Source: Escherichia coli (GTDB lineage: Bacteria; Pseudomonadota; Gammaproteobacteria; Enterobacterales; Enterobacteriaceae). From it: a stretch of DNA of 64,000 nucleotides. The DNA is taken from the NCBI RefSeq assembly GCF_003334305.1, contig NZ_QOWS01000002.1; one strand, 5' to 3'. This document shows, one piece after another, positions 5,328-9,980 of the stretch. Position numbers and translations under genes: made by a program. The notes below the pieces were generated by a model. It was not told the origin of the DNA. It saw only the letters and a program-made list of their open reading frames with translations, and did not search any database. Positions within the stretch are counted from its first letter, which is position 1. The number at the start of each line of letters is the position of its first letter.

Positions 5328-6446
5328 TTATTGGAAGCGGGAAAGCCTGAATGGCGTCAAATCAAAATCGCTTTTTTTGTCTTGCGCAAAATCGGCAGCT
5401 ATTTCCCCTAAAACTGACGCAAATTTAAAACCGTGCCCACTCAGGCCGGTAATGAGCAGTGTATTATCGTGGCCGGGTAGGGTATCGATAATAAAATCTT
5501 CGTCAGGCGAATTATCATAGGTGCAGGCAGCGCCGTACAGGCAGCAACCGATACCCGGCAATACATTGCGCAAGAACGGGAAGGCTTCCGAACCATCGCT
5601 GACCACTTCCGCAAACGGAACACGTTCATCCGCTGAATGGATAACCTGGCCTCCGTTATGTTTGCCAATCTTCAACGCGTCGTTTTCTGCCGGAAAACCA
5701 TAATATTGATCGCCATTGGGCAGTTCACCGGTAAACGCCGGGAATTTATTCTTCACGCTATAGCGGCCATCGGCCTGATACCAGGCAAATACTTTACGTA
5801 CGGGCTGGACAGGCAGCTCCGGGAGCAGGTCTTTTACCCATGTTCCCGCGCAGACAATCGCTTTTTTCGCCTGATACTCACCGTCAACGGTTTCAATAGT
5901 TACGCCATCATCGTCATGACGAATTGCGGTGACCGGGCAGTTGAACAGTTGCGCACAGCCCGCTTCCTTCGCCAGTTGGATCCAGGTTTTAATCGCCAGT
6001 TCGCTGCGCAAAAAACCGGAATCAGTCTCAAATAAGCCGATGTAGTTGTCCGGGACGCGTATTTCTGGCCAGCGGGCCATAATCCCTTGCGCATCGAGCT
6101 TTTCAACGTTGAGTTGCCACTGTTCGGCGCTGTGGGCGACGTTGGCGAGAAATGCGGAGTCAGCCGGGCCGAGGTTAATGACACCAGAGCGTACAAAAAT
6201 GGGATCATCTTCGTTGTGGCGGGAAAGTTCATCCCACAGCGTTTGCGCGCGGAGGACCAGCGGGACATACTTTTCGCCTTCACCATAAGCATGGCGAATT
6301 AATCGCGTATCGCCATGGTGGCTGCCGTGTTGATGCGGTGGCATATGGGCGTCGGTCATTAGCACGTTTAAACCGGCGCGGGTTGCATAATACCCGGCGG
6401 CAGCGCCTACGGAACCGCTGCCAATAATGATGAGATCGTATTTCAT
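5328..6446 (-). CDS. solA: N-methyl-L-tryptophan oxidase
   Basis: 372 aa; N-terminal FAD-binding motif [15 protein letters not shown]; matches SolA. Confidence 0.95.
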
Positions 6447-6560: not shown

Positions 6561-6815
6561 TTAATGACGCCGATACTCGTTTACCGGGAAATCACCGGAT
6601 TCAATTTTGGCGATTCCTGCTTCTAATATCGAAATAAATTGTCTGGCAACATCAGTGGTTAACCAGAGCGTCTGACCAACTTCAGTCCCTTCCTGCTCGG
6701 ACTTATTTGGGGTCTGGTAGTGCAAACGCAACATCAGCGCATCATAGCTATCAACGGTGCTGATGTCCCACCCTACGAGCGGATGAGTCTGAATGACTTC
6801 ATTATTTTTTTCCAT
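6561..6815 (-). CDS. bssS: Biofilm regulator BssS
   Basis: 85-aa ORF; second Met (MEKNNEVIQTHPLVGWD...) gives the 84-aa BssS. Confidence 0.88.
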   Translation of the reverse strand: MEKNNEVIQTHPLVGWDISTVDSYDALMLRLHYQTPNKSEQEGTEVGQTLWLTTDVARQFISILEAGIAKIESGDFPVNEYRRH

Positions 6816-7056
6816 CATGGCCCCCTAATTCGTGTTACTAGACAACGTTATTCGAGGTTCAATGCGTTTTTATCTGAAGCAACTTCAGTATACCAATAAG
6901 TAAGGGTATTCACCGAATTTTTAAAGGGGGGAACAGATAAATTTCTGCTTTTAAGATTTATATGAACAATAAAACAGCATGTCATTCATATTTTTTTAGC
7001 ATATTGTGCAATTATTTTGAGGAAGTGTAGAAATTTTGTACTCAAAATTTGTAAGT

Positions 7057-7083
7057 AAAATAAAAAAGCCGGGGCGACCCGGC
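7057..7083 (-). terminator. dinI rho-independent terminator
   Basis: GC-rich hairpin GCCGGGGCGACCCGGC (7068-7083) immediately 3' of the dinI stop, followed on the - strand by a U-run (forward A-run 7057-7067). Confidence 0.6.
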
Positions 7084-7104: not shown

Positions 7105-7350
7105 TTATTCGCTGACAAACCAGTCATCGGCGCTTTCCCACGTTTCCTGGAGAATTTCGCTAATGCGCTGTTTATCTTCTTTTGTTGCGCCAATAACCGA
7201 TAAATTATTCGCTGCGGCATAACGTACCGATACGTGGCCTTCATTATCAGGAAACGCATACTGAATACGGCGGGAAAGTTCGCCAGCCAGGGCGTCAATA
7301 GCCCCAGCTGGCAATGGAGAAGTTTTCGCTATGGTGACTTCAATTCGCAT
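7105..7350 (-). CDS. dinI: DNA damage-inducible protein I
   Basis: Internal Met of ORF 7105-7482 gives the 81-aa MRIEVTIAKTSPLPAGAIDALAGELSRRIQYAF...; a LexA box lies directly upstream. Confidence 0.9.
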   Translation of the reverse strand: MRIEVTIAKTSPLPAGAIDALAGELSRRIQYAFPDNEGHVSVRYAAANNLSVIGATKEDKQRISEILQETWESADDWFVSE

Positions 7351-7361
7351 AATAGCCCCCT

Positions 7362-7377
7362 GTTGAATATACTGGTT
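7362..7377 (-). promoter_or_regulatory. LexA (SOS) box in the dinI promoter
   Basis: Reverse strand reads CTGTATAAATAACCAG (CTGT-N8-CCAG, close to the CTGT-N8-ACAG consensus) within the dinI upstream region. Confidence 0.7.
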
Positions 7378-7423
7378 ATTTATACAGGCAAAATAACCTA
7401 ATGACAACAGGAAGCTACGATTT

Positions 7424-8470
7424 TTATTGTTTAACGGACCAGCGTACCGTTTCCCCGGCGAGGAATGGCACCAGGGTGTCATCAGTCAGTGCGATGCTTT
7501 CAGCAACCTGTTGCTCTTCACGTACCAGTTCGATGAATGTGTCGTTGACCGGCAAGCCATAGAACTGCGGGCCGTTTACAGAACAGAATGCTTCAAAGTG
7601 CTGCAGAGCATTCATCTCTTCAAAGACGGTAGCGTAACTGCCCAGCGCGGTTGGGGCGTTGAAGCAGCCCGCGCAGCCGCAACTGCTCTCTTTGCGATGA
7701 CGTGCATGTGGCGCAGAATCCGTACCGAGGAATACTCGATTAAAACCGCTGGCGACCAGTTCACGCAATGCCTGTTGGTGAATATTGCGTTTGAGGATGG
7801 GTAAACAATACAGGTGCGGACGCACGCCACCAACCAGCATATGGTTGCGGTTAAACATCAGATGCTGCGGAGTGATGGTGGCAGCCAGCCGTTCATTTCC
7901 GTCACGGACATAGTCGGCAGCATCTTTGGTGGTGATGTGCTCAAAAACGACTTTCAGCGCAGTCAGGCGCTGGCGCAGAGGTTCCATCACGCTTTCTATA
8001 AAGCGCGCTTCACGATCAAAAATGTCGATATCTGCATGTGTCACTTCACCATGCACCAGTAGCGGCATACCGATTTTTTCCATGCGCTCAAGTACCGGCA
8101 TGATTGCGTCAATTGACGTCACGCCGTGGCTGGAGTTAGTGGTTGCGTTTGCCGGATAAAGTTTTGCAGCGGTGAACACGCCTTCGTTAAATCCGCGCTC
8201 CAGCTCATTAGGATCCAGCGAATCTGTTAAATAACAGGTCATCAATGGGGTGAAATTGTGCCCGGCAGGTACGGCATCAAGAATACGTTGGCGATACGCC
8301 ACGGCAGCCTCAACTGTGGTCACGGGCGGAGCCAGATTGGGCATTACGATAGCCCGTCCATAAATTTCGCTGGTATACGGCACGACAGTTTTTAACATGT
8401 CGCCATCGCGGAGGTGAAGGTGCCAGTCGTCTGGGCGGCGGATCTTTAATACCTGGGATGGTGCAGTCAT
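7424..8470 (-). CDS. pyrC: Dihydroorotase
   Basis: 348 aa; [27 protein letters not shown] with the HxH metal-binding motif; matches PyrC. Confidence 0.95.
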
Positions 8471-8482
8471 TAATCTCTATGC

Positions 8483-8509
8483 TCCGGCTGAAGGGATGTT
8501 TTTGCCGGA
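8483..8509 (-). promoter_or_regulatory. pyrC leader hairpin able to sequester the Shine-Dalgarno (pyrimidine-responsive start-site regulation)
   Basis: Reverse strand UCCGGC...GCCGGA inverted repeat, whose 3' arm overlaps the GGAG Shine-Dalgarno just upstream of the pyrC ATG. Confidence 0.55.
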
Positions 8510-8521
8510 CACAAAGGATAA

Positions 8522-9917: not shown

Positions 9918-9980
9918 GTGACTCCTCCATTTGGCTGTCAGTTCACTTTCAGTATGGAGGAGTCAGGGGGGAGTATCAAA

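Follow-up and report, generated by a model that had tools for sequence, protein, structure and literature searches.

The LexA operator of Escherichia coli dinI and an inverted repeat that brackets it

The pyrC-dinI junction and its promoter

The window, by which we mean the whole 64-kb stretch of DNA that was analysed, contains the solA-bssS-dinI-pyrC-yceB-grxB region of E. coli, in which all these genes lie on the minus strand according to the ORF listing. The part of this region that concerns us here is laid out as follows.

5328-6446, minus strand: solA (ORF listing)
6561-6818, minus strand: bssS (ORF listing)
7058-7083, minus strand: terminator-like hairpin GCCGGGTCGCCCCGGC followed by TTTTTTATTT, 3' of dinI (terminator scan)
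7105-7350, minus strand: dinI coding sequence, 81 aa plus stop (ORF listing, RefSeq annotation, homologues with PF06183)
7424-8470, minus strand: pyrC (dihydroorotase), the upstream neighbour, on the same strand as dinI (ORF listing and annotation)

The pyrC stop codon (7424-7426) and the dinI ATG at 7350 are separated by a gap of 73 nt (7351-7423), the minus-strand letters of which are TAAAAATCGTAGCTTCCTGTTGTCATTAGGTTATTTTGCCTGTATAAATAACCAGTATATTCAACAGGGGGCTATTATG. The gene downstream of the dyad described below is dinI because its 81-aa product is 100% identical to DinI of MG1655 (K-12), because a 501-nt query spanning the gap matches 5426 of 5426 complete E. coli genomes, in which the features at this place are annotated dinI and pyrC, and because its homologues carry the DinI family signature. 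The product is thus a homologue of ~80 aa that belongs to the DinI family (Pfam PF06183); this domain is found on all 120 DinI homologues listed, although these matches share at least 74% identity and hence add no diversity. From the pyrC stop codon to the end of dinI, the hairpin at 7058-7083 is the sole sense-strand terminator-like site returned by the terminator scan, which gave none in the pyrC-dinI gap.

The gap and its immediate border with pyrC also hold a LexA box and the elements expected of a promoter and a ribosome-binding site.

7356-7361, minus strand: dinI Shine-Dalgarno (SD) sequence AGGGGG, 5 nt before the ATG (read from the sequence)
7370-7389, minus strand: LexA 20-mer GCCTGTATAAATAACCAGTA (matrix scan)
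7372-7387, minus strand: LexA (SOS) box, 16-mer core CTGTATAAATAACCAG (exact match to CTGT-N8-CCAG)
7379-7384, minus strand: putative -10 hexamer TATAAA, inside the LexA box and 17 nt after TTGTCA (read from the sequence)
7402-7407, minus strand: putative -35 hexamer TTGTCA of the dinI promoter (read from the sequence, conservation)
7421-7431, minus strand: A-rich tract AACAATAAAAA across and just past the pyrC stop codon, moderately conserved at 0.75 bits/column (position and composition)

The dinI promoter was assigned by eye and by conservation. It was not listed by the promoter scanner because this program requires a T at position 6 of the -10 hexamer, while TATAAA ends in A. The columns of the -10 hexamer are invariant across 76 aligned orthologues, those of the -35 hexamer have a mean of 1.48 bits/column in the same alignment, and those of the SD block ACAGGGGGC are nearly invariant (1.83 bits/column). 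Judging from the position of the -10, transcription of dinI would start near 7372, and the A-rich tract, at about -49 to -59 of the putative promoter, is a possible UP element. The LexA box covers TATAAA and thus overlaps the putative core promoter, and the end of the 20-mer is 19 nt away from the dinI ATG.

The LexA box: position, score and conservation

An earlier note on this DNA had reported a minus-strand CTGT-N8-CCAG dyad in the gap between dinI and pyrC. Such a dyad does exist, but it lies at 7372-7387. The interval given for it, 7362-7377, is shifted down by 10 nt and shares 6 nt with the true box. The minus-strand letters at the misplaced position are AACCAGTATATTCAAC, and we rejected this stretch as a LexA site on the score of its 20-mer (-4.57 bits, on the matrix described below). 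The wrong placement may have come from plus-strand CTGT (7360-7363)-N8-CTGG (7372-7375), which forms no inverted dyad. Gammaproteobacterial LexA boxes are 16-bp imperfect palindromes, CTGT-N8-ACAG, with an A/T-rich spacer (20-mer consensus TACTGTATATATATACAGTA). The dinI box is of this kind, with a spacer composed entirely of A/T and a right half-site that departs once from the consensus (CCAG for ACAG).

A chance LexA-like match devoid of any regulatory role would sit well with the frequency of the bare motif. CTGT-N8-CCAG occurs three times in the 64-kb window as against 1.16 expected, which is not significant since 13 of 100 shuffles reach three, and CTGT-N8-ACAG with at most one mismatch gives 18 matches versus 18.9 expected. 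Not being enriched over shuffles, the bare dyad patterns were given no weight of their own as evidence, and because they are uninformative we built a full 20-position LexA matrix. This matrix was symmetrised and made from the 17 published boxes of PMC3009722 Table 4, with dinI excluded, and was used to scan both strands of the 64 kb. On this leave-dinI-out matrix, the 20-mer at 7370-7389 is the top site in the window with 19.71 bits, the runner-up having 11.18, and it falls within the range of the 17 proven LexA boxes, which score 13.65-28.56. On neither strand of the window does any other site score as high as even the lowest of the proven boxes. According to the exact score distribution, a match this good has p = 1.3e-7 per position, that is, 0.008 expected occurrences per 64 kb and ~0.6 per 4.6 Mb. 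The position weight matrix scan proposed in the earlier note therefore returned the best score in the window, not the poor one that would have spoken against an operator.

The same box is found in published lists, which give the K-12 dinI LexA box as TTACCTGTATAAATAACCAGTATAT (PMC3009722 Table 4) and the dinI LexA box as CTGTATAAATAACCAG (PMC2585105). The K-12 box ACCTGTATAAATAACCAGTA and that of the window share the locus, the gene, the 16-mer core and the distance to the ATG. Between the window and MG1655, the pyrC-dinI gap differs by one base, at position 7389 (minus strand, position 1 of the 20-mer), where K-12 has A and the window has G, and the G allele scores 1.7 bits lower (19.71 versus 21.39 bits). 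A 48-nt version of the window's sequence is found exactly in 251 of 5426 complete E. coli genomes, while 4970 differ from it at one base. The G at position 1 of the 20-mer, carried by ~5% of complete E. coli genomes, would thus represent a small natural variant of operator strength, as far as the matrix score goes.

Conservation of the box was assessed at 80 orthologous dinI loci from about 25 genera of Enterobacteriaceae, with one genome per species. At every one of these loci the immediate upstream neighbour is pyrC, on the same strand as dinI, and the pyrC-dinI gap measures 65-81 nt save in four loci with insertions. A LexA box is kept at each of these 80 orthologous promoters: at 76 junctions it scores 19.7-29.9 bits and is situated 18-21 nt before the ATG, and at the other four (two Trabulsiella, two Buttiauxella) it is kept with an insertion downstream of it. 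In the alignment of 76 sequences, the LexA 20-mer has 1.73 bits/column compared to 0.38 in the spacer, and the box is rated as the non-coding block with the strongest conservation. The right half-site is CCAG, as in the window, in 25 of 77 orthologues and ACAG in the remaining 52. Syntenic orthologues with much lower protein identity (L088, 65%; L094, 64%; L089, 60%; L098, 44%) have boxes of 22.9-28.6 bits at 18-22 nt from the ATG, and all six phage dinI or tum paralogues are preceded, at the gene itself or at its operon, by LexA boxes that score 11.7-29.9 bits. Two representatives of the 50%-identity library were left out, namely L092, a 398-nt contig without box, and L093, a C-to-T converted artefact.

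Some peculiar loci were seen in the course of this survey. In L093 (Logan SRR8137538), one strand is nearly devoid of C, and the contig looks like a dinI junction of the Salmonella type after C-to-T conversion. It is an artefact, apparently of bisulfite-type reads that were assembled into the public collection, and its "protein" is a spurious cluster representative (P0137). In Buttiauxella gaviniae and B. brennerae (L061 and L079, about 1300-1490), an ERIC-like repeat of ~127 nt lies between the LexA box and the Shine-Dalgarno sequence, and both arms of the inverted repeat described below are retained despite it. Finally, L096 (1249-1746) has two tandem DinI-family genes of 80 and 81 aa behind one LexA box, which scores 24.7 bits and is situated 19 nt upstream of the first ATG, at a non-syntenic locus that is possibly part of a mobile element.

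The dinI box of Salmonella is closely comparable. In Salmonella enterica, the boxes of dinI and of the Gifsy-1/2/3 prophage dinI genes likewise lie 19 nt before the ATG of genes strongly induced by damage (PMC8072944), and in the S. arizonae orthologue (L023) the box reads AACTGTATATATATACAGTA, again with 19 nt between it and the ATG. The Salmonella box differs from that of the window in being nearer to the consensus (29.9 versus 19.7 bits).

The DNA-damage induction that the earlier note had suggested checking is on record. By RNA-seq, dinI is induced 49-fold by AZT with a 39-fold dependence on LexA cleavage, and its K-12 site, with a heterology index of 4.8, is classed as a classical box (PMC11228462). 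The box was also recovered among UV-induced genes (PMC3009722), and Salmonella dinI, whose main box is 19 nt from the ATG, is up 22.8-fold with nalidixic acid (PMC8072944). A chance match is extremely improbable in view of the p-value of the full 20-mer, of the fixed position of the box over the -10, of its conservation in about 25 genera and in paralogues, and of this LexA-dependent induction. In a side observation on the upstream neighbour, pyrC and the entire de novo pyrimidine pathway are AZT-induced in a LexA-cleavage-dependent manner without a LexA box (PMC11228462), and pyrC lies directly upstream of the dinI operator.

We are therefore nearly certain that the minus-strand dyad at 7372-7387 is the LexA operator of chromosomal dinI in E. 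coli, as the near-identity with the published dinI box, the high matrix score and the published LexA-dependent induction all indicate. The reading of the earlier note as an SOS operator is correct and already known, and only the coordinates of the dyad need mending. The site, its score, its placement relative to the promoter-like hexamers and its conservation were established here, and LexA dependence and damage induction, taken from the literature, presumably extend to the window allele.

In the SOS system, LexA blocks initiation until RecA-stimulated self-cleavage removes it. Applied to dinI, a LexA dimer on CTGTATAAATAACCAG would cover TATAAA (7384-7379), the -10 of a sigma-70 promoter with TTGTCA (7407-7402) as its -35, and in undamaged cells bound LexA would keep RNA polymerase off this promoter, probably by steric occlusion given the overlap. 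Upon DNA damage, RecA filaments formed on single-stranded DNA would promote LexA self-cleavage, the operator would be vacated and dinI would be transcribed into an mRNA that has a strong SD (AGGGGG) in a predicted leader of some 22-25 nt. The DinI product would then modulate RecA filaments. Such modulation has been reported, as has the fact that DinI overproduction prevents SOS induction (PMC12448304).

The inverted repeat around promoter and operator

Minimum-free-energy (MFE) folding pairs two complementary arms that bracket the promoter and the operator.

7405-7418, minus strand: 5' arm GUAGCUUCCUGUUG of the inverted repeat, which overlaps and precedes the -35 (MFE fold)
7352-7365, minus strand: 3' arm CAACAGGGGGCUAU, which holds the dinI Shine-Dalgarno sequence (MFE fold)

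Just upstream of the putative -35, GCCCCCTGT is the reverse complement of the SD block ACAGGGGGC, and in the orthologue alignment it stands out as a second conserved block with no obvious promoter role. The predicted stem joins 7418-7405 to 7365-7352 by 14 bp, G-U pairs among them; it encloses the LexA box together with the -35, the spacer and the putative start site. Since the 5' arm is upstream of this start site, the stem is possible only on RNA that reads through from pyrC. For read-through RNA extending from the pyrC stop codon to codon 10 of dinI, the MFE fold closes the stem at -26.9 kcal/mol (z = -2.86). The same stem is predicted in Enterobacter read-through RNA (z = -3.3), and a stem is also predicted in a divergent Enterobacterales genome in which the SD is GGAGG and the 5' arm GCCUCUG (z = -2.4). 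The predicted probability of the SD being unpaired is 0.001 in read-through RNA versus about 0.2 in RNA from the putative start. In the plus-strand direction, GATTTTTATTGTTT (7419-7432) comes after the inverted repeat, which therefore resembles an intrinsic terminator more closely in antisense than in sense orientation.

The bracketing repeat might act as a translational insulator, a model we advance tentatively. By folding back on itself, RNA reading through from pyrC would bury the dinI SD, while RNA started at the dinI promoter would lack the 5' arm and be translated, so that DinI would be made only from LexA-controlled transcripts. We see this as a plausible scenario that nonetheless falls short of being probable; it is compatible with the LexA operator and would be a second layer of control. 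A reason for controlling dinI tightly can be found in the above-mentioned prevention of SOS induction by overproduced DinI (PMC12448304), and no sense-strand terminator separates pyrC from dinI in the 65-81-nt junctions.

The strength of the pairing is in line with such an insulator. For 53 annotated genes of the region, we computed the best duplex that the 18 nt preceding the start codon can form with the segment from -100 to -29, and ranked the genes accordingly. With -21.7 kcal/mol, dinI ranks second of the 53, the other 52 genes having a mean of -9.4 (sd 3.7). It is preceded by grxB (-22.1) and followed by the PyrC leader (-20.8), which is known to sequester its SD and the ranking of which implies that this statistic picks out real cases. 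When the upstream segment was shuffled, p was 0.001 for E. coli and 0.03-0.18 in four lineages with different but matching arms, the latter values being a weakness of the model. Combined over lineages by Fisher's method, these give roughly 1e-4, a value to be read with the caveats that the windows were selected post hoc and that it is uncertain whether the lineages are independent.

Sequence comparison argues both ways, and it is here that an explanation without any RNA function has to be considered. According to this explanation, the G-run is kept as an SD and the C-run for a DNA-level reason, such as a protein site or promoter geometry, or else the repeat is an antisense terminator. The 5' arm core GCCCCCUGU has 1.48 bits/column, exactly like the -35, though it sits where the A/T-rich subsite of a UP element would be expected, and in the alignment 77% of cells are paired across the arms compared to 35-65% in slid controls, both of which favor the insulator. 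However, the 9-bp core hardly varies, which is why two-sided changes are confined to two outer pairs (28 cells, a number reached in 1 of 500 shuffles), and these pairs are unpaired in about half of the sequences. Moreover, RNAalifold run de novo on the 76-orthologue alignment predicted no long-range stem. A nearly invariant core is also compatible with the conservation of two separate elements, and the plus-strand stretch GATTTTTATTGTTT that follows the hairpin is a better U-tract than that of the sense strand. What the absence of an RNA function leaves unexplained is that lineages with other SDs carry matching upstream complements: GGAGGC/GCCUCU (SD/5' arm) in L051 and L088, AGGAGCAA/UUGCUCUU in L094, and GAGGC/GCCUC in L098. 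An antisense terminator in particular is at odds with the neighbouring genes, all on the minus strand, as the site is not reached by any gene of the plus strand or by a known antisense RNA. We thus rate this explanation as rather unlikely. The matching complements support the RNA fold-back, with the reservation that in these distant lineages the 5' arm is found at shifted positions and at differing distances from the box, so that the helices are analogous rather than aligned.

A further explanation is that the hairpin is an element of the pyrC 3' end, acting as a weak intrinsic terminator or as a stem-loop that stabilises this end, and that it happens to enclose the dinI promoter because the intergenic gap is so short. 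No other strong hairpin is present from the pyrC stop codon to dinI, this one has an A-tract before it and a moderately U-rich stretch after it in E. coli and Enterobacter, and UUUUUU follows the 3' arm in L051. An argument for such an element, and one against the insulator, comes from Trabulsiella (L032 and L033, about 1455-1500), where ~42 nt are inserted between ACAGGGGG and the dinI ATG: the CCCCCTGT/ACAGGGGG stem is kept upstream although its 3' arm has moved 42 nt from the ATG and no longer holds the SD, a different one (GAAGGA) apparently being used before the start. As for L094, it keeps the SD pairing in addition to a separate canonical terminator hairpin after pyrC, and this counts against both explanations. 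Of 79 orthologues, none has five or more T among the 8 nt that follow the 3' arm, and 18 have at most two. The enclosed ~40-45 nt are far above usual terminator loops. The published Term-seq tables (PMC7815308) have no 3' end at MG1655 1121100-1121699, possibly on account of too low an expression; the one entry that they have for pyrC (1122569) falls close to the 5' end of that gene. The supplements of PMC12207403 contain no entry for pyrC or dinI. A canonical intrinsic terminator of pyrC was rejected on the U-tract count (0/79), the 40-45-nt loop and the lack of a terminator-scan match in the gap, and we find the broader notion of a pyrC 3' end element improbable.

Of the explanations considered, the fold-back that would insulate dinI from pyrC is the one we favour, in the tentative terms used above. 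The block that the hairpin may exert on the translation of dinI from read-through RNA is the only possibly new point of this analysis, and it leaves the classification of the LexA site unchanged.

Related systems and significance

Davis, Simons and Kleckner are said to have described in 1985 a fold-back inhibition in IS10 (Tn10), by which transposase translation is inhibited on read-through transcripts. The likeness concerns the inverted repeat only: at dinI too, a segment complementary to the ribosome-binding site lies upstream of the gene's own start, as placed from the putative -10, and only transcripts from outside would be silenced. Unlike IS10, dinI is a chromosomal SOS gene rather than a transposase gene, the loop holds the LexA operator and the whole core promoter, and the effect at dinI is a prediction of our model. 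The repeat is not shared by the phage dinI/tum paralogues, and the Salmonella prophage dinI copies, found in other gene contexts, are without the C-run/G-run inverted repeat.

A second parallel is provided by the neighbouring gene itself. No Rfam family matches the pyrC-dinI gap, the only match being the leader of pyrC.

8471-8520, minus strand: PyrC leader (Rfam RF02372), 68.7 bits, E = 3.6e-10

This leader folds into an SD-sequestering hairpin whose formation is set by the first nucleotides of the transcript, which amounts to translational control by start-site selection. What it has in common with the dinI repeat is a hairpin that sequesters the SD depending on where the transcript starts. 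In the PyrC leader, however, the alternative start sites are a few bases apart in one promoter and respond to CTP/GTP pools, while at dinI the choice would be between read-through and promoter-initiated RNA.

A similar layout was noticed in the mdtH-grxB gap, where a 12-bp hairpin, GACUCCUCCAU...AUGGAGGAGUC (9919-9965, minus strand; -21.9 kcal/mol, z = -3.5), covers the grxB Shine-Dalgarno sequence and ends 2 nt before the GTG start. It resembles the arrangement at dinI, and fold-backs of this kind may be in general use where genes of the same strand lie close together.

As an operator, the dinI site adds nothing new, since dinI is a classical SOS gene whose box has been in published lists for decades. 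It can serve as a positive control, since of all sites in the 64 kb it alone stands out with a simple leave-one-out LexA matrix. If the fold-back exists, it would account for the way in which dinI, whose overproduction blocks SOS induction, can lie 73 nt behind pyrC, a metabolically regulated gene with no terminator, and yet be strictly controlled by LexA.
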